From: Blasia pusilla
Lineage: Eukaryota
Reading direction: 5' to 3'
Length of the DNA: 64,000 bases
Assembly: GCA_050084515.1 (NCBI GenBank)
Contig: CM114271.1
Coordinates: forward strand, 26,784,001-26,848,000
Shown: one piece after another, positions 1 to 50,713 of the stretch
How the letters are laid out: each line of letters begins with the position of its first letter
How positions within the stretch are numbered: the first letter of the stretch is position 1
Made by a program: the position numbers and the translations under genes
Notes under the pieces: generated by a model
What the model was told of the DNA's origin: nothing
The model's input: only the letters and a program-made list of their open reading frames with translations
Databases searched by the model: none

Positions 1-393
1 GCTATCAAGGAATCCGGACGCTAGCACCCTAGTCCTATCTCACACACATACAAGAAAGGTGCTCCAACGTCCCAACATGAGAAAGATGGCTTAGGAAATC
101 CATCTTCCTCTCTTATATAGGGTTGGGAAGAGCCAAAAGGCTTTTCCCCTAAAAATAGCCCTCCCCTTGGTAACTTGCGCGCACAAGTTACCAAGGGCAA
201 GTGACCTGGTCAACAAGTCACCCGGTTGTGAAAGACCTCAACATGAAAGTTTTCCGAAATGACGTTCCTTACACAATAGACCTATCCTCAACCTCATCCG
301 ACACCGTGGGACAAAGTTACACTCAAGATAGTCCACTGGCTCCTACGCCCTATCCACGATAGATCTCGGCCTATCGGCTACTCATATGTGACA
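1..393 (-). repeat. Terminal repeat A (3' copy, A2) of element A
   Basis: Aligns almost base for base with 2561-2953. Contains a 14-bp-arm hairpin CCCTTGGTAACTTG/CAAGTTACCAAGGG at ~164-197. Confidence 0.9.
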
Positions 394-611
394 GCTGTCG
401 TGCGCATACATATCGCTACACAACATATATCGTTGGTCATATCTACACCACACAACACCGATCTTTCCGACACACGGGTCAATCCACACATGTACAAAAA
501 TCAACTCATACATATACATGGAGATCACGCAACCGCCCCCCTAGCTGGCACTTGGATCCCCCCAACTCCAGATAGAAAATATCACATCCCTCTCTTACAT
601 GATCTACTACC

Positions 612-2137
612 CTATACACATCTCGGACACATCCATCGTCCCGTGGGAACCACATCAAGAGGGGGGGTCAGATATGACATATGCCACCCTCGAGAACAAC
701 CATCACATACCAACATGGTGGCTGCATCCCTTGCAGATCCGCACAACATACACCTCAAGCCTCTGCGGTACCACTATCAAGCTCGGATCCACCATCCCAT
801 CTACGTTCGGAAGATGACATGGCGCTCAATTCCGCACATGATCCTTCCAAACCATACCATCCCGTCCCATCCCTGACGCCAAGGATTCCTGCCGACTAAA
901 GCGATAACCCATAGCCAACCATGGCAATTGTAGGTCCTACTCCCTCAATTGTCCCCGTTGCAAGCCATGCTTGCGCAATCCTCTCTTCACCGTCTGTACC
1001 ACTCTCTCCGCCAACCCATCCGCCTCAGGATGATCTCAGGACGTGGTGTGGTGATCTATCAGCGCCTGATCACACAAGGCATGAAACTCTCCCCTGAACT
1101 CGGTACCCTGGTCAGTCAACACCTCCGTCGGTGCACCAAAGTGACTAAGCACACAATCTAGAAACGCATAAGCTGTTCCCTCGCTCGCCCTGTCTGGAAG
1201 TGCCACCAACTCTATCCACTTGGAGAAATGCTCCACCATAACCAACACATACCTATGATGACGCCCCGTCAATGGCAAAGGTCCCGCAAAGTCTAAACTC
1301 CACCGATAACCTAAACCCGTAATCGGCAAAGGATGTAACTGCGGAGTGGGAGCATTGAAGGATGCTCGCACTCTATCACATACCATACATCTAGCCACAA
1401 ACTGCTGTACCCCACTATGCATGTCGCGCCTCCAAGAGTGAACTGGAGTAAGTTGTAAGTACGCTTTACTCCAAAATGTTCCAACTCCTCATGGGCATGT
1501 CGCACTACACTTGCTCGCTGGGAAGGATGAGGTACCACTCGTATCCTATCATCTCCCCATACCCGCAAAATATAAGTCCCCTCCCACCTGAACCTCCTGG
1601 CTCTCTGAAGGATCCGATCCCGCTCTCTAGCACTCAATGTACTCACTATGACGCCAGTGCGCAAGAACTCCACAACCTCCACGTCGTCATGGATATCACG
1701 ATCACGTGTCGCCTCCTCACTAACCTCCGGATCCAAAGACTCATCATCCAACCCCACCACTGGAGTCGTCACCTGTGGCTGACCTGCCATAGTCAACCAA
1801 CAAAGTTAGGCAGATGCATGCCAATCAGGCATCGTCTCCTCATCACTCTCTCCGTGCCATCGAGCTCCTGTGTCGTCTCTCAGACTCGGACATGGGTTAC
1901 GACTCAACCCATCCGCATCCTGGTTCAGCCGACCTGGCCTATGAACCACCTCAAAGTCATACTCCTATAGTAATAGAGCTCACCTGGCAAGCTTTCTCGT
2001 AAGCTTGTCGGACTCCATCAACCTCCTCAACGGTTGATGATCAGTGATAAGTGTGAAAGGGTTGCCGAATAAATAGCACCTGAAATGTGCCACGGCCCAC
2101 ACTCTAGCCAAGCACTCTCCCTTGTAGGAGCTGTACT
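612..2137 (-). pseudogene. Decayed Gypsy pol: RNase H end, integrase, PHD finger
   Basis: ORF-track fragments 1980-2186, 1311-1796 and 1036-1422, plus manual translation of 752-612: CMLCGSARDAATMLVCDGCSRGWHMSYLTPPLDVVPTGRWMCPRCV*. Frameshifts present, and a deletion near 875. Confidence 0.9.
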
Positions 2138-2560
2138 TAAAAGGAAATAAATGCGGGAGGGGGAAGGGGGGGGGGGGCATCGCCATTCACCCGTCCACGC
2201 CCGCCGTCGTCCACTTGTCTGCGCTCGTGCGACCTAAACGCCTCCTGCTCTTTCCCAACACTCTCGCTACTCTTGACGATGCACTCGCCGCCCCACTCCG
2301 TACTACACTCTATCACTGTCCTCAATCCTTGTGCACCAGCAAACTCTGAGAAAAACGGACAGAGCTTCCGCCCACGGTCTTCGGAACAAAAAAATGACCA
2401 ACACCTACAACACACGCGTCTCCAGGGACTCCCGACCAAGGCAACTCGCTTGCCTACCTACAAGCAACAAATTCCCACCAGCCCCCTAGCATCTTTCTCA
2501 TGTAAAAATAAAGAGTAGTAAAGCCCCCTACATCGATATATCGAACATCGTCCACCCTTT

Positions 2561-2953
2561 GCTATCAAGGAACCCGGACGCTAGCACCCTAGTCCTATCT
2601 CACACACATACAAGAGAGGTGCTCCAACAAGCCCAACATGAGGAAGATGGCTTAGGAAAGCCATCTTCCTCTCTTATATAGGGTTGGGAAGAGCCAAAAG
2701 GCTCTTCCCCTAAAAATAACCCTCCCCTTGGTAACTTGCGCGCACAGGTTACCAGGGGCGGGTGACCTGGTCAACAAGTCACCCAGCTGTGAAAGACCTC
2801 AACATGAAAGTTGTCCGAAATGACGTTCTGACACAATGGACCTATCCTCAACCTCATCCGATACCGTGGGAGAAAGTTACACTCAAGATAGTCCACTGGC
2901 TCCTACGCCCTATCCACGATAGATCTCGGCCTATCGGCTACTCAAATGTGACA
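2561..2953 (-). repeat. Terminal repeat A (5' copy, A1) of element A; left limit uncertain
   Basis: Direct repeat of 1-393. Right end is ...TGTGACA at 2953. The partner copy is cut by the window edge, so the repeat may extend left of 2561. Confidence 0.9.
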
Positions 2954-10203: not shown

Positions 10204-10752
10204 AGACATAGCTTCGCGCGCGTGGAGTCTGGAATCTGTAGTGAGGAGAAAGGTCTCATGAGATTGTTGCACCGAAAGAGAATTACGCGCTGAGAGTCTG
10301 GAGCAGACAGGACGCTGCGGTTTTACTCTGCTGTGGCTCACGCACAGAAATAGAGCTCCGCGGATTGGATCTGTAGGCAGAGGGAGGTGGAGCTTTACTG
10401 AGAAGCTCGGAGTGAGAGAGCATTGCGCGCGTTGAATCTGCGGCGTAGAGGACGCTGAGTCTCCGGTGACTCTTGGACCGACAGAGAGTTGCGCGCATTG
10501 AATCTGTAGCGTCGAGAAGGTGAAGGTTCCGTGTGAGTGTCGGACCGAAAGAGCATTTCATGCCTTGAGCTTTTAGCGGAGAGGACGCTAAGCGTTTCCT
10601 GTGGTTCTTGCACCGAAAGAGAGTTCCGAGCTTTGAATCTGTAGCGTCGAGAAGGTTAAGGTTTCCTGTGAGTCTTGCACGGGAAGAGATTTTCGCGCAG
10701 CGAATCGGTTGCGTCGAGAAGGTGAAGATTTCCTGTGATTCTTGCAGTGATT
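10204..10752 (+). repeat. Degenerate ~67-bp tandem repeat (about 8 units) directly upstream of the gatB start codon
   Basis: Units start near 10204, 10278, 10351, 10416, 10484, 10551, 10619 and 10686. Recurring core: GAGAG..GCGCGC.TTGAATCTGTAGCGTCGAGAAGG...TCTTGCACCGAAA. Confidence 0.85.
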
Positions 10753-10789
10753 GAGAATTTTGCCTGTAGCACACCCGTTGAGGAGCTCC

Positions 10790-29190: not shown

Positions 29191-30152
29191 GAGTTATTAT
29201 GTAAACCCTCCATTCTCTCACGACAGGAATCAACAATGGTAGTGCCGAGGCAATCACTTCTTCATAACATCAAACCCCAAAATTCCCAACTATGAAATCC
29301 TTATAAACTACTTTACGTTTGTACACAAGGAAAAATAGCACAAAGAATGTTAAACCCTACTCGATCAGGCCTATTGACATCCATGGATTGCTATGTAAGG
29401 ATATACAAAATACAATCCCATGTCCTTTTATAGGTGACTTTAGGAAGAATCACCGAAGTTGGAGATTACATGACTTGGTTCATGAACGCCTCCTTGAAGT
29501 GATAAACTAGATAGCGAGTGAACCAACGTCAATCTACAAAGAGAATCTTGACATGGTACGGGTTAAGAAAAGGAAAAGTGGGCACAACTCGTGCTCCATC
29601 CCTATCCATATTTGACGGACATCCTCTACTCTCCTCTAGAATGGGGTTTGGCGGAGTTGCCCTCCCAAGAGGGGTAATCCACCCTCATCGGAAAAATAAC
29701 AAGTCAAACCATCTTCTATTACTAGTATGACTAAACTCTCCTAAGGTGACAAGTCTCTCGCCTCCACACAGATCACACTCTAGAATCCTCTCGAAAAGGT
29801 CAAGTTACTCTCCCAAAAAAAGTAATCCACTCTCATTGGAAGAGCAAGCAATCCCAAAGTCATCCATTCAAGAGTGACACGAGAAACTCAAGATATGAAG
29901 TAGAAGGTGATGAACCCTTGAAGGTCCCTCCTCTTTATATGCTCACAAGGGATCTACAAGAATACGAAACAAGGCTTAATTTATCTTGTGCCACATGGCT
30001 TCCTCTCAAGGCTTAGCCAATCACATTTTGACATCTTAAGGAGGTTTACGCATGGGAATTTTATTTTCCTAGGCTATTTTACTTAATACTTATGAAACTC
30101 TCTCTAACACTTAATGATAAAGGAGTTTACGTAGTGGGTGATTTTACTATGC
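29191..30152 (-). repeat. Decayed LTR of family X
   Basis: Colinear similarity to 34004-34847 and to the reverse complement of 41624-42903 (for example ATCTTGTGCCACATGGCTTCCTC, GGCTTAGCCAATCACA, CTAACACTTAATGA). Termini are eroded. Confidence 0.85.
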
Positions 30153-33100
30153 GTCTCCATGCATCTCTTGTTCAACATTATGGGATAGCAATGAGAGAAA
30201 CAAATTGTAATATAAAATAGGGCATATCTCTAGGACCAACACAGGTAGATGACCCACATGTAGAGGTCACTGGAGGAACTAGGTGATTTTAGAACTAGAG
30301 TATTTACAACTAGATCCTATAGCATTAGTTTTACAACTAGAAATCCTAAGATTACTAACATGTAATTATCTAGTCGTATTATGTCACTAAGCATGAGACA
30401 TGATTTAAGCTTTATAATTAGTAATAAAGAATATTTAGAGTTAAATGATTTTATATTACATTTTATGAATTGGAATTGAAATTAACTAGATCTAGTCCTC
30501 TTAATTATATGTAGTTGATTTGTAATAATTAATAGGATATGATGTGTAAGAACTAAGAATAATGATGAATTGGTTAATATTTAATGAATAAGTATAAATA
30601 TTGCATGGAAATATAAGTACTAGTTGAAGTCATAAACTAAAAAAAAAAGACCCAAGTAGCATAGAGACCCAGGTGGCATACGCCACCTCGGTCTTCTCTT
30701 ATTTAAGAAAAAAAATAAAGCGGGAGTCGAATTTGCAAATAGACAAGTTTCAAAGAAGAAGTGACCACCCGATCAAACCCTACCCTCGAAATAGTTTTGT
30801 GGCATGCGCTCTTGTTACTGGTGATCATGTGCGGTTCTAGCGCTTAGGAAGATCCGACGTTGAGCATTTTGCATTGTGAAAAGTTGAAGGCTACGGCGCA
30901 ACCTAGACAGTTTTGGTCTCAAAGGAGTGTATACTCTTCATATGAGAGCTCCCATATGCGCATTCTACTGCTCCATTCCCATTTCCCTTGAAATCAATCA
31001 AAGGGCTCGAGATTCCTCAACTACGCTCTTGAGAGAAATACGGACGTTGCTACTCTCCTCTGCTTTCGGTAGCTCTAGTTGTTAAGTTATATTCACAGAA
31101 TCGAACTGTTGGAATGAAATGTCATGGAGCCTGTCGCGACACTCAATTAATGACTGCTTTGTTGCAAGTGAAGTTAAAGGTTCTCGTGATATTCATGTCT
31201 GTGCGTGTGTTTGCACGGAAGTGCTCAAGCTGATGTTCAAACAATGGGTGATGTTAGGGAGAAAATTTGCTTAGATATCTTCCATGTCCGTCTGTGAGCC
31301 TCTTCATCTCATAGAAAATTTGGTCGAAGCTTCTAACGAGCTCCCCGTGCTTTTGAGGATTATGTTGACTTTATCTCTATCGCAATGTATATGTCTATCT
31401 TACTCTCACTCGCTCGGTATGCAACGGACAAAAACTAGGATGTTCTAAAGTGATGCACCGTCATGGGAAGGAAGAGGGATCAATCAGAAAACTCTTCTAA
31501 TAGCAAACATCAATCTTCATCTCCGCGTCGCCTCATCCGCGCTTTCTACTTAACACTCATAGCATGGACAACAGCACAAAGAAGTTGGTATCGTAGGATT
31601 CCCACTGGTATCTCTAGCAACGGAAAATGAGCAATGATTGTTGCAATGTTTGGGGAATTGGGAGCTCCGTTGGTAAGGTGAAATTGATTTGAGAGTTTAC
31701 TTGTTGCAAGCGTGGGGGAAGATGCAATGCTTTATAGGTGAGTTGTGGATGAATGTGGTTTGATCATGAGATGGAGTGGGCAGCACAACAACAATAGCTT
31801 CCGATTGAGCTTGCGGGATACATCTGAGGACGTAATCCTCTGTTGATTTCACTTATAGCTCCAATTCGTTGATTCGAGACTGTCTCTCTTCAATTCGTTC
31901 CTGTTTCGAATTCAAGAAGCGGACCAACCTATTGAGTTCAAGTGAGAAGAAATTTCAAGGATCTAACATCATTTGTCATTTATCTTCACTACCGATATCT
32001 TCTACGGCAAGGATGTGAAAGAATTAGTGGAAGTAGCAGTTGGCCTTTCATGTGGTTAAACTAGCAACCACTACGACATGCCTACTATTACTCCTCACAA
32101 ATTAGGCCATTAGGTAGCAAGCAGTTTGCAAAATAGCAGCAAGCGCTTGAAACCTCCAAGAAGATCAAAAGTCCATACCTTTTCAAAGGTCCAATTGCTC
32201 ATTTTTTGTGACCTAATTGTTTAAGAAGGGAATTTTTCTTCCATAAACTTGCATCTGTCCTACACTCTTACCTACGAAGTCATCTTGCTTAGTCACATAT
32301 ATTGGTTCTTCATTATTAGGCCCTTCATCATGGTGTATTCAAGTGGAGTTGATTGAGCTCAACTCTCCTTACCTAGAAGAGTTTCCTCCATAGTTCTAAG
32401 TGAACAGGTGCCACATATTCCTTTTGTGTCTTTATTGGCCTTGCAAGCATACATACTATGCCTTGGACGGAAAATGATGGAGATTATAATGAGTGTAGAG
32501 AGAGTCATGCCCATACAAATCGCTACACAACATACATCGCTATCAACAAACATACACACAAACACGCACGATCGATGCTAACTCATGGCATCCAAACAAC
32601 GAGACAAGAAGTACCAAAATATCTCCAATAAATCAAGTAGATCTCTCTCCACACCATAGCTCTGTACACTCTCTCAATGTCAAACCAAACGCACTCCTAA
32701 TAAGAGGCTTGGGTTACACTCACAAGGCAAGGGACCAGAGGTTCAACAAAGAGAGAATGAGCTCTCAAGCTCTCTCTCCTTGAAGTATACCCCCTTTCCT
32801 CTCCCAAGCTCTGTCCTCGTTAACCTAGCTTGCACGTCACCTCCTTGGCTCTTGATTTGCTGTAGCGGGTCAAGGGCCACTTCCCAAAGTATAAGGTAAA
32901 CTCTATCCCTTACCCAAAATAGTAAGTTTCTCTATATGGCTCCAAATGAGCCGAAACGGAGGGAAAACTTGCTCTCACATGTTACTTGTGGCCTCAACAC
33001 GTCATCGTCTACCTCCTCAGGCTATCCTCTAGTATCCTCAAAGGCGCTCTACTAGATCTCGCCCATCTATCCTAAAAGTCATGACAACTGTCGTGTGCAT

Positions 33101-34003
33101 ACACATCGCTACACAACATACATCACTGTCAACATACATACACACAAACACGATCCCATGCTAACTCATGGCATCAAAAAAATGAGATAAAAAGTACCAA
33201 AATATCTCCCATCGCCCTCCTAGCTGGTGGTTAGGTCCCTCTAACTCCAGATAGCCATCTATCCCTACCTACCATGTCATACATCTCTCGGACGCTAGGA
33301 GCAAAAAGGCCGGGTGCTCATATGGCCCCATCGTTAGTCGCCTTATTGTCATCTTTTTCACAGACACAAGTCAGAATCTATAACTACCTACTCTATGTAC
33401 ATCAGGGACACATCCATTGTCCCTTAGGAATCCTAGTGAGAGGTGACATTAGACATGCCATATGACACCCTCTTGAACACCCATCACAGGCTAGCATAGT
33501 GGTTGCACCATTGGTGGAACCACACAACGTACATGGCAAGTCTGCAGGAACTACTGCTAAGATCGGATCAACTGTATCGTCAATGTTAGGAAGGTGACAT
33601 GACGCATAGTTACCGAAATGGTCATTCCAAACCATACCATCGCGTTCTCCAACAAGAGAACACCAGATGGCAAAATCTCACATACTCTCAAGATGGTACG
33701 CCGTACAGTCACATCCAATGTCATGGATGTCGTTTGCTGCAAGTAGACATAATCTTTGTGATGAAACCTCCGGATAGTAGGTCGATAACCACCTCATCGA
33801 ATAGTCGCATACCTTTACGTATCATGATGTTGCGCAATCGCCAAGTTCTCAAACGCCATGGGCATCACTCTCCAAAATAACTCAACCCTCTAAGAACATG
33901 CTCGCATCCATACATCAAGGTCATCAAGGTTCAACACCTCACCAACATCTCAACAAATGGCGGTAGGTAAATCAGACTCTCGGCCATAAAGCAGCAAGTA
34001 CGA

Positions 34004-34847
34004 TGTCTTGTCGAGAGCCTTTCTTCGAGTAAGGGCAGACCTTCTAGTTGCGATAGACGTGGTCGATGCAAGATGAACTCTCTAAGAAGTTCTCCTTTTT
34101 CAATACAAAATTATTATGTATACTCTCCATTCTCTCACGACAAGTATCACAAATGGAAGTGTCAAGGCGATCTCTTCTTCGTTACATCGAATCCCAAAAT
34201 TCCTAACTATAAAATCCCTATAAACTATTTTACGTTTGCACACGATGAAGATAGCACAACTAGTGTTAAACCCTGCGCCCATGGATCGCTATATAAGGAC
34301 ATACAAAGTACAATCCCATGTCCTTCTAGATGTGACGATAGGAAGAATCACCGGAGTTGGAGATTGTATGACCTGGTTCATGAACATCTCTCCAAAGTGA
34401 TAAACTAAATAGAAGGTCCTTCCTCTTTATATACTTACAAGGGATCCAGAAGAGTACGAAATAGAGCTAATCTTATCTTGTGCCACATGGCTTCCTCGCA
34501 AGGCTTAGCCAATCACAATTTGACACAAGTAGAGTTCCTCTTATCTCTTCCAAAATATCCTTTTTCATCCACTTGATATTTTCCAAATTACCCCAACTAA
34601 GCTAGCCACCAACCAAGACTACTTTTGCTTTTTATTAAAGCACCAACCTTGCTACTTTACTTTTATAAAGTCATCTTTTATTTATTACCTATTTTCCTAA
34701 AGTTGGGCCCGCATGAAAGAGACACCATAAAGAGGTTTAAATATGGGAATTTCCTTTTCCTAAGCTAATTTACTTAATACTAATAAAACTCTATCTAACA
34801 CTTAATGAGGAAGGAGTTTACACACTGGCTCATTTAAATGTATGACA
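34004..34847 (-). mobile_element. Solo LTR (family X) with 4-bp TSD ACGA
   Basis: TGTC...GACA termini; ACGA at 34000-34003 and 34848-34851. Removing the LTR and one TSD copy restores the integrase frame. Internally deleted relative to the 1280-bp LTR at 41624-42903. Confidence 0.9.
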
Positions 34848-35612
34848 ACGATGAGAAAGATGTTGAGGATGCTTGCCGACTAAATCTGTATCCCAACCAT
34901 GGCAACTGAAGTTCCCAGTCTCCTAGGTTACCTCTCTGCAAGCCATACTTGCATAATCCTCTCTTCACCATCTACAAAACACTCTCCGCTAGTCCATCCG
35001 CCTCATAAATGATCTCGCGAAATGGTGCGGTGTTCCATAAGTGCCTTATCACACAACGCTTGAAACTCCCTTCAAAACTTTGTACCGTGGTTTGTCAACA
35101 CCTGAGTTGGTGCGCCGCGAATGACTCATCACTCGATCTAGGAAGGCATACGCTACTCCCTCTCTTGCTTTGTCAGACAATGCAACCAACTCTATCCACA
35201 TTGAGAAATGCTCGACCATCACCAACACATAACGACTATGGCGCTCCGTCAAAGGCAAAGCTCCTCCAAAATCCAAACTGCATCTATAACCCTAACCCAT
35301 GATCGGAAGTGGATGCAACTGTGGAGTTGGAGCATTGAATGATGCTTGGACTCGATCACACACAATGCACGTGGCAACAAATTTTTGAACGTCAGTCTGC
35401 ATGCTTCGCCACCAATACTGTATCTAGAACAAGCCATACGTCCACTTCACCAAACTCCCGGTGAGCATGACACACCAAACATGCTCTCTGCGAAGGATGA
35501 GGCACAACACATACTTTACCATCCTCAATCCTAAACTTGCAACACATATGTCCCCTCCCACCGGAACCGTCTTGCTCACTGTAGGATGTGATTCTGCTCT
35601 CTAGCACCCACT

Positions 35613-38600
35613 TGTTGGATTCTCAACATCCACTTCTCTAAGCACCGTTAATCTGATCGGCCCCCTTGTATGAGGAGAAGCCTAGATTGATGGTTCCAAC
35701 TTAGACGTCGAAGGAGTCATAGTAATATGACGTAGGTGGTTTACGGAGTAGCGTTACTAGGTTTATCTAACCCTATATTGCGGGGGTCCGGAGTCGCAGC
35801 CCTTGGAAAAAAATTTCTATTAATAGAAACAAAGAAAAATAGGTAAAAACCCTAGTTTTCCCGAGTAGTCAAATAGTCGGGAGCCGCAGCAGTAGCGCAT
35901 TCTCGTATGTCGAGTTATCTCCTAGTTCAGGTTCCATCGAACCTCTTGTGTGAGCGCACAGACGGACTAGGCCACCTTGTATCTCTAAGTTTTGTAAAGA
36001 TTTCAGTGATTTCGTCACTTTCTGTTTTCTCACATGGTATCAGAGCAGTAGGTTTTCCAGTATTTTGTATCTGGCGATCTAGTGTGTTTGCACAAAATCT
36101 TGAGAGATGACTACTTCTTCGTCAGTTCATGCTCGCCCTCCACCGCTGGGTGAAGGGAAGTTAGATGGGTATAACTATACGTTGTGGAAGTTCAAAATGA
36201 GAACTGTTCTCGAATCATTTGAGATCTGGGAAACGGCCACAGGGGTCGATTCAAATCCACAAGCTAGTTTGAGTTATACATGTTCATCTTCATCTAGGGA
36301 TATCGATCATGCTGTATTGTTGGCATGGAGACGCAGAAACGCTGATGCTCTATATGCAATTGTCACAAATGTAACTGATTCTGTCATGACTGTCATTCAA
36401 CATACAACCACTGCTGCTGAGGCGTGGAACATTTTGAAAAATCAGTATGAAACGAGGAATGAGACTCGGATTGAATCGGAGAATCGCCTACGTCCAGAAA
36501 TTTTCAGAAGGAGAAAGCGCGGAGCCATTTTTTACAAGGATCAAGAATCTTCAAGATCAGATGGCCTCCGTAGGAATTTCAAAGTCTAGCAAAGATTTGG
36601 CACGTCGGTGCATAAGGATTTTTCCTCCAAGGTATGACAGTTTGGTCACTGCACTGAATACTCAAGTAAGACCCACGCCGCTTACTTTTGAATAATTTAG
36701 TGCAATGTTGGTAGAAGAGGAAATGCGCTTCAAAGCAAGACAGGGAAGTGATGCAGCATTTACTGCCAACATACAAAGAGGTAGAAATCAGGATTACATT
36801 TCAAATGTCAAGAAGAAATTTCCAAGAAAAGCCTTCAAATGCTTTTGATTGTGGTAAGCTAGGTCATCTTATCAAAGATTGTAGAAAGAGGAGTCAGGAT
36901 GAGAAGAACGATTGTTTAAGACCTAAGAAGGAGTCTTGAAATTCTGTAGAACTAGGAGAACATGAAGTAGATGCTTGGGTAGCAATAGAAGAGTTTTGCA
37001 CACAGGCAGAACATTCCACTAAGTCAAAGAGTGAAGATGCATGGGTGCTCGATAGTGGAGCATCTAGGCATATGACCAATCATAAGGATTGGTATAGCTC
37101 CTTACAGTCTCTACAGGAGCCCATCGTTGTTACTGTTGGGAATAATGCAAAGTGCCATGTAGAAGGGAAAGGCACAATTTCTTTAGTCTCACAAAAAGGC
37201 GATGAAAAGAAGTGAAATGATGTACTGTACGTACCAGAGTTGAAGCAAAATTTGATTTCAGTGCCAGTATTATGTGATCGTGACCTAGAAGTTCGTTTCA
37301 AGAAAAGTGGAGCACTCATCGAGAATGCCAATGGGAAAGTAGTGGGTGAAGGTGTACGATGTGGAAATATCTACGAGTTGTATGCTTTCACGACAAGTGT
37401 AGGTACATATCTTAGTAGCAGTAAGTTGTGGCATAAAAGATTTGGTCACCTAAGCTTTCCCTTACTAAGTCAGATGTAGAAATCTGACATGGTTGCTGAT
37501 TTACCAACAATTTCTGGAGTATCGGATACTTGTGAAGCTTGTATGATGGGCAAGCAACACCGACAACCATTTCCACAAGAGTCCAGCAATAGGGCAAAGG
37601 CTCCTCTAGAGTTGATACATGCTGACCTCTGTGGTAAAATGAGAACATTGGCATTAGGTGGTTCTTCCTACTTCTTTTTAGTAGTAAACGATTATAGTAG
37701 GAAGATGTGGGTATATTTCCTTCATGATAAGGCAAGTGCTTTTGGAAAATTTAAAGTATGGCACAAGCTGGTTGAGAATGAGACAGGAAAGAAGGTACAA
37801 AAGCTTCCCACCGATCGAGGAGGAGAATTCTTATCAACAAAATTCAACAAATATTTGGGGGAGCATGGAATCAAGCGACAGTTAACCACGGCACATACAC
37901 CACAACAAAATGGATTTTTTGAGCGTCAAAACCGTACAGTGGTGGAGATGGCAAGATGTATGATGAAAGAAAAAGGTTTGACAGAAGGATTTTGGGCTGA
38001 AGCTGGTAATACTGCTGTATACATTCTAAATAGAAGTGCTACCAAGTGAGTGCAAGGCATGACTCCTCATCAATCATACTCAGGTAAGGTACCATCAGTC
38101 CAAAATTTCAGGACTTTTGGTAGTGAGTGTTTTGTACATATTCCTGAAGTATCTAGGACCAAGCTTGAGTCCAAGAGTAGGAAGTGCATCTTTATGGGAT
38201 ACAGTGATGAGTCTAAAGCTTATCGCCTTTGGTGTCCTGAGGAAAAGAAGATGCTTGTGAGTCGTGATGTGGTGTTCCAGGAACAGCCTCGTCAAGTGGC
38301 GGATATCAGTGGTTCGTCCACATTATCATCAAACAAAGAGATAACACACCAAAGCACACCACAAATGTTTACACCAGATCATCAAGAAGAAGAATTTGGT
38401 GATGATTACAAAGAGCAACCTGCTCTTCTACTACGGTCATCATACCCTAAGTGGATAAAGCAACTCTTGGATAGTAAGGATCCACCAGCAACTGATGAAG
38501 TTGTTACACATTCAAGGAGATCCAAGAGACTAGAGGAGCAGAATAGAGCTTCCGCACATCTCATCAACATGGCCTTGATGACAGAGGTCTTGAAGGTGGA

Positions 38601-40598: not shown

Positions 40599-41623
40599 CC
40601 ACTGTGTTCGCGATGCTGCTAGTACGTAGGTACTCCAAGACCACTCCATCGTCGTGAATATCTCGGCCACCTGTTATCTCCTCACCAGCCTCTAGATCTA
40701 AGGACTTTTCATAAGACCTCACCATCGAAGTCTTTGCAATCTGGCTGTCCATAGCCAATAAGCCCAAATAGATTCGCGCATGCCATCCTTGCATCAACTC
40801 CTCATCAGTCTCACCATGCCAACGAGATCCAATCACATCTCGCTGACTCGAGCATGGGTTACGGCTCAAACCATTTGCATTTTGATTGAGCATCCCAAGT
40901 CTATGCACCACGTGGAAGTCATACTTCTGCAACAAAAGAGCCCACCTCACAAGCTTCCTTGTAAGCTTATCAGGCTCCATCAACCACTTAAGTGGCTAAT
41001 AATCAGTAATAATGGTAAAGAGGTTGCCGAATAAATAACACCTCAAATGTGCGACAACCCACACTGCATCCAAGCACTCACCCTTATACGAGCTATACTT
41101 CGCCTCTCCAACGTTGTTCGAGCGACTAGCGTAAGCTACCACGAACTCTCTACCATCATTGTCATGTTGGATGAGCACGGCTCCAGGCGCCAATATGCTC
41201 CAATTGATATGCAACTAGAAAGGACGCCCCCTGATAAGTGTCCTTAATATGGGCGGGGGACGTTAATCTATCCTTGAGCAGCTAAAATGCTCTCTCCTGC
41301 TCATCCCCCCAATACCACTCCTAATCCATATTGGTGAGCAAGGTTAGCGGCTTCGCAATCGAAGTGAAACCCTTGACGTGTTTTCAATAGAAGTTTTCCA
41401 ATCCCATGAATGCACAAACTCCACTCCCATCTCTAGGGTCTGGAATGCGTGAAATAGCCTCTACCTTCACATGTTGCACACCAAGGCCCCCTCGATATAT
41501 CGTATGACCCATGTACTCAATTCGGTCGTAGAAGAACTTGCATTTGTCTGGAAGTAGCTTTAGCCCATGTAACTAAAATCCTCAAAACACCTCCTCTAGA
41601 TGTCGCTCATGCTCCTCAACCGT

Positions 41624-44131
41624 TGTCGTATAGTAAAATCAGCCAATGTGTAAACTCCTTCCTCGTTAAGTGTTAGATAGAGTTTTATTAGTATTAAGTA
41701 AATTAGCTTAGGAAAAGGAAATTCCCATGTTTAAACCTGTTTATGGTGCCTCTTTTATGTGGGCCCAACTTTAGGAAAAAAGGTAATAAATAAAAGATAA
41801 CTTTATAAAAGTAAAGTAGTGAGGTTGGTGCTTTAATGAAAAGCAAAAGTAAGCTTGGTTGGTGGCTAGGTTAGTTAGGGTAATTTGGAAAATATCAATT
41901 GGGTAAAAGAGGATATTTTGGAAGAGATAAGAGGAATTCTACTTGTGTCAAAATGTGATTGGCTAAGCTTTGAGAGGAAACCATGTGGCACAAGATAAGA
42001 TTAGCTCTATTTCGTACTTTTGTGGATCACTTGAGAGTATATAAAGAGGAAGGACCTTCAAGGGTTCATCACCTTCTATTCCACATCTTGAATCTCTCGT
42101 GTCACTCTTGAGTGTATGGCTTTGGGATTGCTTGCTCTTCCAATGAGAGTGGATCACCCCTCTTGGGAGAGTAACTTGACCATGGTCTATTCTCCGAGAG
42201 GTTTCTAGAGTGTGGTGTGTGTGTGGATATGAGAGGTTTGTCACCTTAGAGGAGTTTAGTCATACTAAAAAATAGTGAATGTTTTGGCTTGTTACTTTCC
42301 CAATGAGAGTGGATTACCCCTCTTGGGAGAATAACTCCGCTAAAACCCATTCTTGAGGATAGTAGAGAATGTCTGTCAAACATGGATAGGGATGGAGCAC
42401 GAGTTTTGTCCGACTTTCCTTTCCATAATTCATACGATGTCAAGACACTCTTTGTAGATAGGCACTAGTTCACTCGCTATATAGTTTATCACTTTGGGGA
42501 GGCGTTCATGAACCAGATCATTCAATCTCCAACTCCGGTGATCCTTGCTATCGTCACATATGGAAGGACATGGGATTATACTTTGTATATCCTTATATAG
42601 CAATCCATGGACATCAATAGGTCTGCTCAAGTAGGGTTTAACACTAGTTGTGCTATTTTCCTCGTGTACAAGCGTAAACTAGTTTATAAGGATTTTATAG
42701 TTAGGAATTTCGGCGTCCGATGTTACGAAGAAGTGATCACCTCGCCACTTCCATTTGTGATACTTGTCGTGAGTGAATGGAGAGTATACATAATAAATAT
42801 ATATTGAAAAAGAAGATCTTCTCAGAGAGTTCATCTTGCATCGACCACGTCTACCGTAGCTATAAGGCCTGCTCTTACTCGAAGAAAGGCTCTAGACACG
42901 ACAAATGGTGCTTCCATCGAGAGATCTTTTAGGCGATAGATTATGTTTGCAAGTTGGAGTCTTATCAAGATGACTACTTTTGGTAGTAGTTCATCAACCG
43001 AGGGAGGTGAGGATCTTCTCCGAACTTTGAGAACATTGTTGAGCCAACAAGGAGGAGTTCACATATTGGAGCAAAGATCAATAAGGGCTCTTCAAGCGAT
43101 TGTAAAGAAGTTGGGGAGATTTGATGGGAGGAACATCACCAAGTATGTTTGAGAGTACGTTTGTGAGATGGAGGTAAACCGTGTATCCGAAGGTGATATG
43201 GTGTCAAGTTTTGAGTTAGCTGTGATATCAGAGATTCATAGTCAAGTAAAGAAGTTGAGAGCAGAAAATCCAACCTCGAGGGAGGAGTATGAGCAGTTCC
43301 TAAAAAGAGAATTCTTTGATGATGATGTGGATCGGGTGACTAAGAGGAGTTTTTTAGAATGGATAGAGCAAGGTCTAGAGAAGGGAATGACTCCAAATGA
43401 ATTATTGTGTGAGTTTGAGAAGCGGTTTTTTCAGCTTTCTTCTTCCAAAATAGCAACTCTAGACTTGAGGAAAATTGAGTTATTCCTTGAGGCGGAATTG
43501 GAAGAAAGTGGAAGAAGTTGTTGCTATCCTTACAAAACAAAATCAAAGTAGAGGTAGAACCGCACTATTCAAGTCGGAGGTATCAATTTCAAATTCATTG
43601 CCTAAGCCTGTTTCAACAAAACTTGAAGATTGTGCTATAGATGAGTTGGTGAAAGGTTTGAGAGAATTGAGAGTAGAAATGGCTCAGCTTAAACTTGATA
43701 GGAATCCTAGTGTTGGTGCTCCTTCGACAAGTAGAAACTTTGTGAGAAGATGTATATGGTGTGATAGTATTGAGCATCAACGTCGAGAATGTGAGGAGTT
43801 TTTAGAAGCTCTTAGGAATGGAATAGTAAACTTCAAATATGGGAAGATTCATCCAACGCAGACTGGTATGCCGTTGAATACCAACTTTGGTAGAGGAGGA
43901 ATGATACGACACCACGTAGGTTTTTGGGTGCTATAGGCACTATAGAGTTATAAATTTTCATAGCGGAGTTTAGGAGTTGGTGTGACTTAAAGTGGGCTAG
44001 GAAGTCCAGAGAGTTCAACCTGTTTACATCATGGAACAAAATCTTCCAGCATTTAGAGAGGGCAAGGAGGATTACCATGAGTGTCATGGATAGAGCCGTT
44101 TCAAGATGAGAAGGAGGAGTTAGGAGAGGGT
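41624..44131 (+). mobile_element. Truncated Gypsy-like element of family X: 5' LTR, PBS-like site and decayed gag
   Basis: LTR TGTCGTA...CACGACA at 41624-42903; AA then TGGTGCTTCCATCGAGAG (PBS-like) at 42906; gag fragments GRFDGRNITKY and zinc knuckle CIWCDSIEHQRREC. Confidence 0.85.
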
Positions 44132-44286
44132 TGTCACATCTGAGTAGCCGATAGGCCGAGATCTATCGTGGATGGGGCGTAGGAGCCAGCGGACTATCTT
44201 GAGTGTAACTTTTTCTGACGGTTTTGGATGAGGTTGAGGATAGGTCCATTGTGTCAGGAACGTCGTTTCTGAAAACTTTCCTGTTG
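44132..44286 (+). repeat. Truncated start of repeat A (element A subfamily), opposite orientation
   Basis: TGTCACATCTGAGTAGCCGATAGGCCGAGATCTATCGTGGAT matches the reverse complement of ~2800-2953. Confidence 0.9.
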
Positions 44287-44365
44287 GAAAGTAAGTGGGG
44301 TGATTTGAAGCATGATGTTGCCAAATTTGCTGGCTGAATTGCTTGTGTAGAAGATCAACATCGGT

Positions 44366-47300
44366 TGTCATTCCACTAGTCTAAAATCCATCTTACTATG
44401 AATCCTAAAATCTCTACACATGAATGAATGGACAACCCCAATTTCCCCCCTAACCGGTGGTTTGGTCCCTTTAACTCTAGATAGCCTACAAAAAAAATCT
44501 AAATGCTATGCATCTTTCCAGTGCTAAGATCAGGAGGTTGGGTGTTATGTCTCCCTATCGTAAGTCACCTTCCTCCAATCCATTACATCAAGAGTCATCT
44601 TGTAATATACCTATCACACCTATATACGTCTAAGACAAAGCCAACGTCAATGAGGATTCAAGTCAAGAGGCGGTGTCAAACAAGACATTTGCCATCCTCT
44701 ATATCTGGTCATCCCAAACCAAGCAAGGTCCGGCCTCCTTGAATGTATAGGAAGCGAGAAAACTCACCAATGTCGGAAAGGCTGCCCCTGGCATGCCAAT
44801 TCTGTCGACCATAGTCAATGGCGGTCAATCATGTAGCCTCACTCCTTGTGATCGACAGCCTGGATCCAATATAGAATCCACCAATAAATTAGGGGAGCAA
44901 TCCACTCTCGCATATGCCCTCCGTAATACCTCGTATGGTACCGAGGAGGTCCACCAAAGACGCGGCCGATGTGCTCGTGAACCCACAATAGCCGCATCCA
45001 ACAAAACTGCCAGGCGAATCCATGTGCCCACTTGATATACACTTCTCACCATACGGGACCTCGAATCGCACAAAATCGGTACATTCTCCAGAATCTATGC
45101 TGGAGGACGAGACAGATGCTCCTACAAGTGTCGCAAGATCCACATCATCTTCCAAAACAACCTGGACCGAGAGTCAACTAATCCGCTATCCCGTTCAGCA
45201 TTCGACTGGCCCTAACATGACTCACCAACAATGACCAAGTCTATGGTCCCTACCCACTCCAAGTTCTACGCCCCCAACAATGAAATGTCCCTCGATAGGA
45301 AACTCTGGTAAGCCTGAATGGCAGACGTAGACAGCAAGTCAAGAAAAGAGAGGCGTAAGTGCACCACATGGTGAAGTGAAGCGCGCATTGCAACATCATC
45401 AATCTCCACATCCAGGTACTGCTGCACGCGCACTCCAGCCTGCAAAACAACAGCTTACCCAGTGTTGATCCCTCCAAAGAGATCCAACAATCGAATACCC
45501 TTCTCTGGGATGCACCACACAATCAAGGTAATGTCCAAAGGGGCCATAGCATCACTCCTGGCTATCTGGGGTTCCTCTGACCCGTCACACTATGGTACAA
45601 ACGTCTTGCTCCATGTGGTGTGCAGAGGCTTAGTGGCTAAGCGTTGAAGCTCCTTAATCGAGCCCCAAAGCGACACCTCTCCTTCATGGACTAATGCGAC
45701 TACCATGACACTTCTCTCCATAGAAATGTAAGCAACGAGATTATCCTGTGCATGGACATGTCCTTCAATCAAATCACTAGGCCAAGTGATGGCATTGCTA
45801 AATGCTGCAAAGGTCGCCATCTTTCCTCGCCGTCGCTTTATCACTGCACATGTGAATCAAACGGATAATGAGCTAAGGCGCCCATCACCTAACTGCCATC
45901 CTGGTTTGTAGGACGCTAACTTCTCCCAGTAATCCAAGGAATATCCCATCGGATTTAACACTGCTCCACCAACCAAGACCTGGTAGGACTTTGCATTAGT
46001 CATTATCGCCTTGGCTCACACCACCGACTCATCTGTAAGATGTCCCGGGCGAATCCTCCCCACAACCTATCGGGTGATATACTATGTGCTACTTGCTCCA
46101 CCCAAAGATATATGTATCCAGAATGGACAATGCTCCACATCGGCTCTTGTCAAGCCCAATCCTCTTAATGACGCTTTCCCCAACATCAGGGGTTGCGCTC
46201 TTGAATCCAACAAGACGCGCTGCGGACTAAAAGCTCTACCTCCAGAACTCACCAAATAGAAGACCTCTCCCCGGTTATCCAGCAACATAACACCAGGAGA
46301 AGCCATGGCACGCTCTATCGCGAGTCTAGCGGGCATTTCGGCCATCATAGCAGCCTTAATTTGCCATGAATCTGACGTGGACGGCCCGAGCATCCATTCC
46401 AGGTCCATCACCTCCTCTGCAATCACCTTTGAACGTGATGCAGGAACTCCAACTCCGCGCTCACATAGCATAGCGACCAGCCGGAAAACCTTGACGTGCG
46501 TACCTCCCGACGTCATAACATCGGAAGTACTAAACACTGGAGCATGGTACACCATCATGGCCGCCCCCAACATCGTACTCAACACATGCTCCTCCTAAGC
46601 ATCAACAATAGGAGTCATCGTAGTCGCTTCTCCCATCGCCCTTTGTGCCTGCACACCAATAACATCACCAACTCTCCGCGAACTCTAATCATGATCCATC
46701 GATGGGGTCCTCATCGCCTCAGACAACGTGAAAGATTGAGGAAGCCTGGTATGTTTCCTGGCTTCCCCTCGTTGTGGATCCAACTCAACGGCTGCTCCAT
46801 GTGTCACAACTATGGCGGCCTCTATTTGGGCAACCCTGCTCATTCAACCAGGATCCTCCGTATCTCTCGCTGATCCATATGATGTCGATGCCATGGATCT
46901 AGCATCGGATAACCTCAATGTGATAGCAACAATCTGCTTCTGTAGCTGTTGTATCTCAGCAGCCATTCCAGCCTCACGCCTAGCATCTCCTTCCACGCAT
47001 CTAGGTGGTGGGACTCTACCTCCTCCACGGGCAGCTCCACCACCGTGTCGGGCAACTTCAGCTCCTCGTCCCCCAACGGGACCACCAGGTGCACGATCTC
47101 TAGGCTCACTTGAATCGGCTATTTGCTTTGGTGCCCTCTCTGGCCCTCGGTCTGGATTTAAATCAAGGTGTAAATTGAAACACATGGCGCGTGTGTGACC
47201 CTACCTCTGACAATAGACACACTGATAACCTCCTGGTGCAACACCATCTCCTCCATGCTCAGGCACACGTCCATAACCCTGACAAGTGCAATCACGTTGA

Positions 47301-50300
47301 TGATGGGCTCCACCACATGACCAACAAGTAATTGTAGGCGGCTACTACTAAACTCCATATGAAAGCGTAGGTCTCTATAGCACGGCCTCTTGGTATCCTC
47401 CTTGAGATTGTGATGCCATAGTCAACCTATCTTGGAGTCCACGTTGCTACACTAGTGGTGCAGACAATCGTGAATACTCTCGCCGAGAACCCATGGTGGG
47501 TACGGTCTCCTCCGCCATCTTGCGCTCAATGTTCTCGGCGGTCCTTAAAACATCTCTCAACGTAGGGGAGATGTTCAAATGAAGCATCCCCTCCCACACA
47601 CGTGTCCGCATGGTCTGGTCCAACATCGCGTACCATGACTTGATAGCCTGAGCCTGTGTCAACCCTTGAGTGACGTTGATCAACCGACGCAAGCGAGTGT
47701 AAACCTCATGCAAACTCTCACTCGGGCGCCTTTGGAAGTCATGGATGCTCTACAACTTCTCCGTCCGTACCCCTTGGTAGCTCGCCCTCAACTCAACGAA
47801 GAACTCAACCACGGGGTTAAACCAAGGACAAACTCGGCTAGACGGTGCAACTGCTCTAGTGTGAGTGACCCCTCCTAAAACATCACTAGTGGAAGAGGAA
47901 GTAGCCTCTCATGACTCCTCCTCCTTATCTGGGAATGGCTGCGTCCATGACACATAGTGTGGGTCATAGTAGAGTCGCCATGCCTCAATCTCTAGGGCAT
48001 ATATGTGGGAGAACTCATGGTAATCGTCCATGGGTGCCCCCTCTCAATTCTAGAACATACCGTTCCATGCTATAAATGGATTGAACTCTCCAGAATTCTT
48101 AGCCTGTTGTGAGTCACACTAACTTCTAAACTCCGCAATGAACTCGTGTAGCTCTAGAGTGCCTATAACATCCGAAAACCTACTCGATCCTCTACCCCGG
48201 TCGTCCATCTCGTACGCCCAATTGGTAGGACCACTTGATGTGTACGGTGAATCACTAACACATTCCTCTACATACTCCCCCTTGTCTGAAGATGACATAG
48301 AAGGAGATCAAGGTGGTCTTTCAAGTGGAGACCCTCAAAACCTCGCACCACTCCGGATAAACCCTTCAGAGCTACTCTCAATTCCACTACCTGGCCTCTT
48401 AAAATCCCGAAAGGACGCCATGATAGCCCTCGTGCCTCTCCCACACGATCACTCTCAATCTTGCAAGTTATCCCTCAATCACTAAACCCAAATGTGCGTC
48501 ACTCAATCTGCACTCTCTCACTGAGACGTGTGTTGTGCGGCAACAAGCGGTGCGGTCCGGAAAATCAACTGATCTATCGTCTCATCGACAAACCATCCTC
48601 AACTCACGACATCCCACATAGGTCTATATCCCCTAAACCCATACATCATCGATGCTCTTAGCATCAACACAAAACCCAATATCCTAAATAACTTCCCAAT
48701 ACCCCGAAATCCCTCCCACATGTTGGGTAAGAGATCAGAATGGGTAACATGACAATAATATCAATATCGCTCCTCGGAAATTATAAATCTCGACCCCAAC
48801 TTGGTCGTGAAGACAACTCCAATCAACAACTTGTACTCCTCTCCTATTGACATTGCTCAAACCTCCTCGATGTGCGGTGCAGATCCAACCGTCCAATGCG
48901 GCACTGGCGGCACGGAACGGCTACAAACAGCACGGCACTCGAGAATGGGGAGCGGAACTCTGCGGCATACCCTCCTCAATCAGAAATTCACACACTCTGC
49001 TCCTTAGTGAAGGAGCGGCTCCGCGATCGAGAGGGTGCGGTGCGGCCACAAGCGGCACGGGGTGACAATCGATGGCGCATTGCGGCTACGCGCGTCACGG
49101 CACGGTACTCGATTGTCGTCAAGCGGCTACCAATCACAACCTAGCGACGTGAAATGAAAACTCAAACACCATAACCCGAGGTCACGTGCCATCATTAGTT
49201 GATGACAAAACTATGATGATGATGGCCGCCAAAATAAAGTATGTGATGGCGGCGCAAGTGAGACAATCAACAGTCGACGTGGAAGACCCTCCACTCCGTA
49301 ATGGCGGCAATGGCAACCAAGGGTGGACAAAGGCCGAACGCAGCTCTAAACACCGCTAGGCGGCGGCGGCAGCCAACGATGGACGATGGACAGTGTATCA
49401 TTGACAATGATGGTGGACCATTAATGGTGACGTTTGATCATCGATGGCGGACCGTTGATGGTAAGTATAACGGCGCAACGGTTGATTTAGGGTTTGAATA
49501 ATTTAACCCTAAAAATCACCTAGCAATGGCATTTTTGCAAGATTGACCATAAATTTTTGCTCGAAACTCCAAATTGCACACTTTTTTTGTACATCGTGCA
49601 TAGATTCACGATCTACGACGGCGTCAAAAAATATTTTAAATCGGACATTCCTTTAAAAATTGAAGGGGACTGTTGTAAAGCCCAACGTCTATTTCTCCTT
49701 TTTTAAAAATTTGGCGGCGCTTCCACGCTGATTTCTCCCAACAAAAATGTAAAACATATGAGAACGAAAATAAGAAAGCTATGTGGTGCTCTTGAGAGCA
49801 CCGACATGGAGTAATCCGCCCCCATACTCAATTCCTATAAAAAATTAGGCAGTGCTTCCGCGTGCCACTCTCCCGTACAAAAAATCAGCAAAGCAAAGCA
49901 GCAAACTCGCACGGCTCTTGCTATGCTGAGCACTCCCACGAGCCATGAAGCGGGGAACAATGTCCCCCAACCTGCACCAAACATTGAGCAACCAGCGAGC
50001 TCCCCCATGAAGTTCTCTCACTCACTTATTCTCTCTTTGTAAAATAAGATCCAACCTCTTTCACTCACTCATTCTCTCGTTGTAAATCAAGATCCAATCT
50101 CTCTCAACACCATAGCTCTCAAATGTGTGCACTGTCACATGTCTCTCTCAATATCAAACCAAACTTTCTCTCATACTGAGAGGTTTGGGTTACACACACT
50201 AGGCAAGCAAGACCATAACTTCGCCGTCTCATGCCAAGAGGTTCAACAAAGAGAGAATGAGCTCTCAAGCTCCCTCTCCTTGAGGTATACCCTTCCCCTC

Positions 50301-50397
50301 CCCCAAGCTCTCTCCATGGTTACCTATGCTCCCAAGTCACCTCCTTGGCTCTTGACCTGATGAAGGAGGTCAAGAATCACTTACCAAAAATAGAAAG
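44366..50397 (-). mobile_element. Ty3/Gypsy-like retroelement copy C: repeat A, long leader, gag, protease, DNA methyltransferase, deletion, PHD tail, 3' UTR
   Basis: Repeat A homologue at 50083-50397 (matches 32629-32900). gag at 47447-47713; knuckle CVYCQR*GHTRAMC at ~47221-47180; protease VLLDSRAQPLMLG at ~46220-46180; C5-MTase motifs at 45500-44950; PHD remnant RGWQMSCLTPPL..RWLCLRRI* at 44700-44620. The 3' UTR is homologous to copy B, and the terminus reads ...ATGACA at 44366. Whether the whole span is one element is not certain. Confidence 0.82.
44710..45500 (-). pseudogene. Retrotransposon-encoded DNMT3-like cytosine-C5 methyltransferase domain (single frame, several stops, C-terminus deleted)
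   Basis: Manual translation: GIRLLDLFGGINTG*AVVLQAGVRVQQYLDVEIDDVA...RDISLLGA*NLEWVGTIDLVIVGESC*GQS...GLVDSRSRLFW...ILENVP...VLLDAAIVGSRAHRPRLWWTS. This gives motifs I, II, III, IV, V, VI and VIII in canonical order. Confidence 0.9.
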
Positions 50398-50713
50398 TCG
50401 ACCATAGCATAGGTAGTTCTATATTCCGACTTGTGTCTGTGACATGGATGATAAGAAGGCAACTAACGATGGGGCCACATGAGCACCCGACATTCTTACT
50501 CTTAGCGTGTGAGAGATGTATGTCATGGTAGGTAGGGATAGATGGCTATCTAGAGTTAAAATATCTCCAATCGCCTAGGGGGGCGATTGGAGATATTTTG
50601 GTATTTCTTGTCTCGTTGTTTGGATGCCATGAGTTAGCATGGGATCGTGCGTGTTTGTGTGTGTATTCGATGACAACGATGTATGTTGTGTAGCGATGTG
50701 TATGCGCAGGACA
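50398..50713 (+). mobile_element. Inverted 3' UTR plus repeat B fragment of the DNMT/PHD family (copy D)
   Basis: Reverse complement of ~33089-33395; ends ...GCGCAGGACA at 50713 and abuts CACTA coding sequence. Confidence 0.85.

Follow-up and report, generated by a model that had tools for sequence, protein, structure and literature searches.

A stretch of 64,000 nucleotides of Blasia pusilla DNA (GenBank assembly GCA_050084515.1, contig CM114271.1, positions 26,784,001 to 26,848,000 of the forward strand; hereafter the window) carries copies of a Ty3/Gypsy-like retroelement in which a DDE integrase is combined with split direct repeats, arranged as A1-internal region-B1-nn-A2-B2, where nn stands for two nucleotides. 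In the textbook classification split direct repeats belong to tyrosine-recombinase elements without target site duplications (TSDs), and DDE integrases to elements with two identical long terminal repeats (LTRs); the family described here breaks this link between repeat layout and recombination enzyme. The explanation that best accounts for the data, held with moderate confidence, is that the repeat made by reverse transcriptase (RT) is out of register with the ends on which the integrase acts, and that integrated copies are circular permutations of the reverse transcription product, since their termini are the start of A and the end of B.

The family is Ty3/Gypsy-like, occurs in bryophytes and green algae and encodes gag, a protease region, a C5-DNA methyltransferase (DNMT), RT, RNase H, a DDE integrase and a PHD finger. 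Copy B of the window is a degraded Gypsy-like element on the minus strand, in which domains were placed by Pfam and tblastn with stops read as X (Table 1); its match to PF00145 (C5-DNA-methylase; about 45292-45041) is weak, reaching 21.9 bits, just below the cut-off of 22. The nearly intact polyprotein of a metagenome locus, L010, matches PF00145 with 36 bits against the same cut-off, together with RVT_1, RT_RNaseH, Integrase_H2C2, rve and PHD, and the Ty3/Gypsy pol order of RT, RNase H and DDE (rve) integrase is found both in L010 and in the window. These domain searches uphold the assignment to a Gypsy-like element with a DDE integrase that had been made in an earlier reading of the window (the sequence-only reading), which had also suggested a scan for a tyrosine recombinase: no PF00589 domain was detected in the sense frames of copy B (33000-42998 and 44900-50100), in the L010 polyprotein, in the forward frames of the L010 5' region or in the reverse frames of its pol region. 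Nor was a chromodomain found by Pfam in copy B or L010, the PHD finger being present instead. Among the matches listed in protein searches, the closest proteins are those of liverworts (Calypogeia, Riccia, Marchantia) and of Closterium, the named relatives further including Sphagnum, Chromochloris and Haematococcus, and relatives combine PF00145 with RT, integrase and PHD.

At the 3' end of copy B, read on the minus strand, the 3' untranslated region (UTR) is followed by B1, the dinucleotide GT, A2 and B2. B1 ends in ...GCACACGACA (33095-33089), GT occupies 33088-33087 and TGTCATG begins at 33086; copy A has a junction of the same form, ...GCGCACGACA-GC-TGTCACA at 402-387 (CACGACA-GC-TGTCACA), and the two copies share this layout although their internal regions are only 73-77% identical. 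A1 and A2 are 94.4% identical in copy A and only 72-83% identical in copy B, where B1 and B2 agree at 85-87% across 115-126 nucleotides (nt). The A2 repeat of copy A (1-393) is cut by the window edge, so that the presence of B2 beyond it is not visible. The 5' repeats consist of A only: the A1 repeat of copy B (50083-50397) ends exactly at the point where B2 starts (32629-32888 aligns with 50083-50388), and no B-like sequence follows either window A1 (local alignment scores of 10 and 15, with shuffled sequences averaging 11.3 and 10.1). The sequences that follow A1 in copies A and B show only weak similarity to each other (score 19 against a shuffle mean of 12.7, sd 2.4). Upon re-reading of the sequence, the split direct repeats, the coordinates and the junctions of copies A and B reported in the sequence-only reading were confirmed, as were its statements that the 5' repeats carry A alone and that A1 of copy B stops where B2 begins; its overall interpretation is supported in part, as detailed below.

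A genome-wide collection of copies had been proposed in that reading, and in its place metagenome contigs were scanned with an alignment of family polyproteins, which yielded 80 loci, 68 of them distinct, encoding the same polyprotein with DNMT, RT, RNase H, DDE integrase and PHD. Two subfamilies were traced by reference modules, M1 (reference L010) and M2 (reference L039, clearly homologous to window copy B in its UTR and B). A 3' end of the form UTR-B-nn-A-B was found in 15 distinct M1 loci and in seven distinct M2 loci plus one cut by a contig end, giving 22-23 distinct loci in total, whereas B is followed by unrelated DNA in four distinct M1 and eight distinct M2 loci; these counts leave out L013, L014, L031, L045, L052 and L058, which are cut off or rearranged, and L059, which duplicates the counted L049. 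Three loci of other subfamilies (L001, L002 and L006) read PPT-B-CACGACA-NN-TGTCA(C/T)G, where PPT is a polypurine tract. In 23 of the 24 rows, corresponding to 22 of 23 distinct loci, B1 and A2 are separated by exactly 2 nt, the exception being a microhomology deletion. Among 17 distinct 5' ends A stands alone in all, with the leader next to it in 16, and neither B after A nor A-B before A occurs in any of them. Because the layout recurs in independent metagenome loci with an almost constant 2-nt spacer, it is far beyond chance and is a property of the family. Two observations concern individual loci. L022 and L023 agree at 99.4% along 2.7 kb of pol, UTR and B and have different flanks, one going on as B-nn-A-B and the other ending after B; the pair represents two very young insertions, one of each form, or else a chimera of the assembly, and was not used as evidence. 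L020/L021 is a 5'-truncated copy whose start matches L010:5856 and which ends exactly at the end of B.

The outer boundaries of the integrated elements carry the marks of a DDE integrase. TSDs had been recommended for inspection outside A1 and B2, and a perfect 4-bp duplication flanks the start of A1 and the end of the last B in seven of nine elements with both termini, a set that includes three A-internal-B elements; the duplications are GGTC, CCAC, ATTA, AAGG, TGTG, TACA and TGTT, and of the remaining two elements one shows a match at three of four positions and one shows none. The terminal heptamers, TGTCA(T/C)G ... CACGACA, form an imperfect inverted pair with TG...CA ends and are conserved among subfamilies in which A and B cannot otherwise be aligned, and the start of B and the end of A show no conservation across subfamilies. 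Integration is thus by the DDE integrase, and since the 4-bp TSDs lie beyond the beginning of A1 and the end of the last B, the B-nn-A junction is a site at which both integrase attachment ends are juxtaposed inside the element, in agreement with the internal position of these ends envisaged in the sequence-only reading.

Priming signals occupy equally defined positions, although not those of an ordinary LTR element. The PPT reads AGGGGGGCGG in copy A (542-533) and AGGGGGGCGA in copy C (50577-50586), and copies A, B and C as well as fragment D have AGG(A/G)GGG... at this place. A run of six to eleven G residues stands immediately before B1 in 22 of 22 rows and in L001, L002, L006 and L038, being shortened to G3-G5 in two decayed M2 rows (L033 and L061). 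The earlier remark that no purine tract touches A2 holds; the conserved tract touches B1 instead, in every subfamily, which contradicts the proposal that the element replicates without standard PPT priming. Similarly, no primer binding site (PBS) of the transfer RNA (tRNA) type was found directly after A, as had been stated, and no tRNA genes were found in the 64-kb window; what had been overlooked is that A1 is followed by a PBS-like sequence complementary to the predicted 5' end of the element's own RNA. In 12 of 18 rows, representing 11 of 17 distinct loci, the first nucleotides after A form a perfect complement of 10-17 nt to A positions 164-186; with shuffled leaders the mean is 5.2-6.4 and the maximum 9-12. 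The complement covaries between subfamilies, being AGTTTTTCTAGA in M1, AACATAGTTCTTTGAG in M2 and CTCATTCTCTC in window copy B. With a TATA-like box 31-34 nt ahead of the primer-like sequence in each case, the complement is placed at the predicted transcript start, and it may be regarded as a putative signature of Tf1-type self-priming, which would make a tRNA PBS dispensable.

To the observed layout, TSDs, positions and conservation of PPT, PBS complement and heptamers, and to the lack of a tyrosine recombinase in the frames searched, the proposed mechanism adds a predicted transcript start, self-priming and a circular or end-joined intermediate. The transcript would start inside A, about 32 nt past the TATA-like box, the minus strand would be self-primed as in Tf1 by pairing of the first RNA nucleotides with the PBS directly after A, and the plus strand would be primed at the G-rich PPT directly before B. 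Since the PPT precedes B and the PBS follows A, the LTR at the level of RT would be B-nn-A, and the linear complementary DNA (cDNA) would be [B-nn-A]-internal-[B-nn-A]. The integrase would act not at the outer ends of this molecule but at the internal ...CACGACA-nn-TGTCA(T/C)G..., where the end of B stands next to the start of A. The cDNA ends would be joined, in a 2-LTR circle or an equivalent end-joined form, which would be opened at the CA-nn-TG next to the leader, the product being A1-internal-PPT-B1-nn-A2-B2 with a 4-bp TSD. A 2-LTR-type circle opened by the integrase is suggested as the simplest route. The A2|B2 joint would then represent the end of U5 fused to the start of U3, and it consists of the end of A as seen before the leader and the start of B as seen after the PPT. 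Its length varies by +1 or -2 nt in seven of 14 distinct M1 loci, in none of which the B1|A2 spacer varies.

Several observations weigh against this mechanism. The four M1 loci with a -2 joint may be one lineage, so that the variable length of the joint does not cleanly support de novo joining. In a symmetric 2-LTR circle the CA-nn-TG site is present twice in identical form, and the permutation A-B-nn-A-internal-B is predicted as well; since this alternative was seen in none of the 17 distinct 5' ends, the choice of junction must be directional, for a cause that the model does not supply. The PBS complement is short or absent in six of 18 rows, window copy A keeps only eight of its 10-11 nucleotides, and the weaker matches fall within the range of the shuffle maxima (9-12); the short or missing complements are tentatively read as decay. 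The 12 distinct loci ending after B may stem either from recombination or from direct integration. The RNA-seq reads show no accumulation of the starts or ends of molecules, dips in their depth recur in DNA contigs, and no circle, transcript start or poly(A) site was seen in the RNA-seq and sequence data examined.

The RNA-seq reads comprised 885, 1449 and 937 reads in three runs at an identity of at least 85%, and they derive from related copies because most are less than 95% identical. They are strongly strand-biased, consistent with sense transcripts over UTR-PPT-B1-A2. A dip in depth at the last 47 nt of A2 is uninformative on the poly(A) site because it is mirrored in DNA contigs, and contig "joints" between B1 and B2 positions were rejected as repeat cross-mapping. 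An RNA joint from 33278 to 32791 (three, eight and seven reads in the three runs) links the 3' UTR to the TATA-like box of A2 and so leaves out the PPT, B1 and most of A; it was not seen in DNA contigs and lacks canonical splice ends.

A different order of events leads to the same product. The integrase may cleave the linear cDNA at the CA-nn-TG of the left repeat and insert both new CA-3'OH ends, at the end of B and the start of A, jointly into the target, after which the outer ends, those of A end and B start, would be joined by the host in the chromosome. This sequence yields exactly A1-internal-B1-nn-A2-B2, a 4-bp TSD and an imprecise A2|B2 joint, and since the left junction lies 113-176 bp from the cDNA end and the right one 290-460 bp, this difference in distance might account for the lack of the alternative permutation among the 17 distinct 5' ends. 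Nothing in the sequence tells it apart from a circle; it would, however, leave a chromosomal double-strand break at each insertion and we know of no precedent for it, and it is considered unlikely.

Replication in the manner of DIRS, PAT or Ngaro elements, towards which the sequence-only reading had pointed, is judged somewhat less likely again. A terminally incomplete transcript would be copied without PPT or PBS priming, and the internal B1-nn-A2 would serve as template or splint from which both ends are rebuilt ahead of integration. The repeat layout is indeed identical to that of split-direct-repeat elements as given in a description of these elements (PMC8969392) and in two figure legends (PMC5890265, Fig. 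1e and 4c). The model needs neither a conserved PPT exactly at the start of B1 nor a covarying self-complementary PBS exactly at the end of A, both of which are present; in addition, no tyrosine recombinase was found in the frames searched, and TSDs are present, whereas DIRS elements are described as lacking them (PMC8969392, in the part concerned with this feature).

It is very improbable that no special mechanism is at work and that the layout reflects tandem arrays of an LTR-less A-internal-B unit, as the sequence-only reading had allowed, or repeated insertion of a solo A-B next to B1. Copies ending right after B do exist (12 distinct loci and window copy C), and three of these are complete A-internal-B elements with TSDs. 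The spacer is nevertheless 2 nt in all but one of the 24 rows across diverged subfamilies, the TSDs lie outside A1 and B2 and not around A2-B2, and A2-B2 is always followed by flank and TSD and never by a second internal region, which speaks against arrays. An A-internal-B copy should moreover be a dead end: lacking a 3' copy of the transcript-start region, it would presumably fail at the first strand transfer. B1/B2 recombination, with which the sequence-only reading had reconciled such copies, may give rise to them, as may direct use of the two internal sites, so that recombination is one of two possible origins. That the copies seen are merely damaged forms of an ordinary element with A+B LTRs at both ends can practically be dismissed: A2 and B2 together resemble a normal TG...CA LTR, yet B never follows A at the distinct 5' ends, the PPT precedes B1 and not A2, the PBS-like sequence stands directly after A, and two identical LTRs with a PBS at the 5' and a PPT at the 3' LTR are not found in integrated copies, such an arrangement existing only for the proposed RT-level repeat B-nn-A.

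Table 1. Features of the family copies in the window; positions are counted from its first nucleotide.
Feature	Copy	Positions	Strand	Remarks
A2	A	1..393	-	ends at window edge
PPT (542-533), B1 (532-396) and spacer GC (395-394)	A	394..542	-	
pol remnant: RNase H, integrase, PHD	A	618..2138	-	lacks regions matching residues 1-415 and ~834-956 of P0007 pol
A1	A	2561..2953	-	TATA box 2680-2673; primer-like sequence 2650-2640; decayed PBS-like sequence 2555-2546 just downstream
B2	B	32503..32628	-	terminal repeat; 3' end GGGCATGACT, a decayed integrase end
A2	B	32629..33086	-	starts TGTCATG; contains TATA-like GGTATAC (32791-32785) and, as predicted transcript start, primer-like CTCATTCTCTC (32761-32751)
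Spacer GT, 2 nt	B	33087..33088	-	separates B1 end (CA) from A2 start (TG)
B1	B	33089..33211	-	last bases CACGACA
PPT-like AGGAGGGCGA	B	33212..33221	-	directly upstream of B1
3' UTR	B	33222..33395	-	homologous to that of metagenome subfamily M2
Integrase C-terminal region and PHD finger	B	33396..34006	-	integrase part 34006-33644; PHD ~33530-33398
Integrase H2C2 zinc domain and core	B	34870..35611	-	
RT C-terminal part and RNase H	B	40600..41632	-	
N-terminal pol region	B	45041..45751	-	matches N-terminus of Marchantia protein P0010
gag CCHC zinc knuckle	B	47180..47221	-	in-frame stop inside
PBS-like GAGAGAATGAG	B	50068..50078	-	just after A1; perfect complement of primer-like sequence in A (50261-50251, 32761-32751)
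A1	B	50083..50397	-	~143 nt missing from 5' end
3' UTR, PPT (50577-50586) and B	C	50403..50713	+	end ...GCAGGACA directly against unrelated flank
UTR and PPT (44451-44442) of another copy	fragment D	44438..44609	-	match stops exactly at B start
First 155 nt of A, isolated	copy-A type (91.6%)	44132..44286	+	starts TGTCACA; unrelated sequence upstream

Some local arrangements within and around copy B were also recorded. A tandem duplication of about 43 nt at 50040-50095 on the minus strand spans the end of A1 and the PBS-like sequence. At 50397/50403 the truncated A1 of copy B (minus strand) abuts the inverted UTR-PPT-B of copy C (plus strand), the two pointing apart; this adjacency is probably a local rearrangement, and its interpretation as a DIRS1-like inverted repeat was rejected, as none of the metagenome loci shows it. 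The interval 44132-44609 inside copy B holds two fragments in convergent orientation: the first 155-200 nt of A on the plus strand, and on the minus strand a UTR-PPT piece whose match ends exactly at the PPT|B boundary, beyond which it may hold a short unalignable B. An unclassified repeat occurs in three copies (29194-30153, 34004-34850 and 41621-42903) that are 84-92% identical, one of them in opposite orientation, and two of these interrupt copy B. Nested in the pol region of copy B, at 35613-40598 on the plus strand, lies a Ty1/copia element with copia-type gag, rve, SH3_retrovirus and RVT_2 domains, whose ordinary LTRs (35613-36034 and 40153-40598, 88-93% identical) provide a contrast to the split repeats within the same window. 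Elsewhere, an open frame at 10751-11689 on the plus strand strongly matches GatB_N (Glu-tRNA amidotransferase subunit B) with 181 bits and is presumably an exon of a host gene; it lies in sequence richer in GC, beside tandem repeats of 67-135 nt at 10326-10761.

An element of this kind has already been noted in print, and the one described here is a bryophyte member of that kind. KnitGypsy-Dnmt3 of the charophyte alga Klebsormidium nitens is presented, in the passages devoted to it, as an element whose Gypsy-type Pol includes a Dnmt3 domain (de Mendoza et al., 2018, Nat Commun; PMC5890265), and the legend of Fig. 4c in the same paper mentions a DIRS-type repeat structure with Gypsy domains. 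The likeness consists of a C5-DNA methyltransferase inside a Gypsy-type Pol, as in L010 and, below the cut-off, in copy B, and of A-coding-B-A-B repeats, which are found here as well; the host is a charophyte alga in that case and bryophyte-like in the present one. The terms PHD and chromodomain do not occur in the main text of that paper, whose passages concerning the element mention no TSD, PPT, PBS or mechanism. No Klebsormidium proteins were among the matches listed in the word-based protein searches, and the likeness to KnitGypsy-Dnmt3 is one of described architecture. In the literature searched, KnitGypsy was mentioned in no further paper, and, judged mostly by titles and abstracts, no other case of split direct repeats on a DDE element was found.

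Comparison with better known systems delimits the family further. In the relevant passages of reviews, split direct repeats are counted among the features of DIRS elements, in combination with absent TSDs (PMC8969392, PMC8557442). The PAT-like, Ngaro and TOC1-type members of the DIRS order share the A1-internal-B1-A2-B2 arrangement and a presumed circular intermediate with two B|A junctions, but they use a tyrosine recombinase and are described, in the relevant part of PMC8969392, without TSDs, whereas a DDE integrase, 4-bp TSDs, TG...CA ends, a PPT and a PBS are found here. Self-priming has been described for Tf1/sushi and for plant Tcn1 chromoviruses (PMC6317226, in the passage on priming), which resemble the present family in the Ty3/Gypsy pol order and in a PBS complementary to the 5' end of their own RNA (predicted here) rather than to a tRNA; they differ in having ordinary identical LTRs and a chromodomain, in place of which a PHD finger, a DNMT and permuted repeats occur here. 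Retroviral integrases are reported to cleave palindromic LTR-LTR junctions of 2-LTR circles (PMC1905944, PMC1180852), and there, as proposed here, a DDE integrase acts on juxtaposed CA...TG ends in a circular molecule. The retroviral junction arises from joined cDNA ends in a side route, whereas in the present family CA-nn-TG is inherited inside the repeat and the joined ends would form A2|B2 instead.

The family is widespread in the green lineage, and LTR-finding pipelines are likely to miss such elements or to set their boundaries wrongly, because they seek identical terminal repeats with adjacent PBS and PPT. It is tentatively proposed, as a possibility that falls short of an even chance, that a green-plant DDE lineage has uncoupled the RT repeat from the integrase ends and integrates obligatorily via a joined-end, 2-LTR circle-like intermediate, in convergence with the circle-dependent DIRS and Ngaro elements, and that it would be the first LTR-type element with circular cDNA as its obligatory substrate instead of a dead end. 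If the reading of permuted LTRs is true, circular cDNA, which is usually seen as a by-product, would be the productive intermediate, and the role of an element-borne DNA methyltransferase could be studied on a defined extrachromosomal form.

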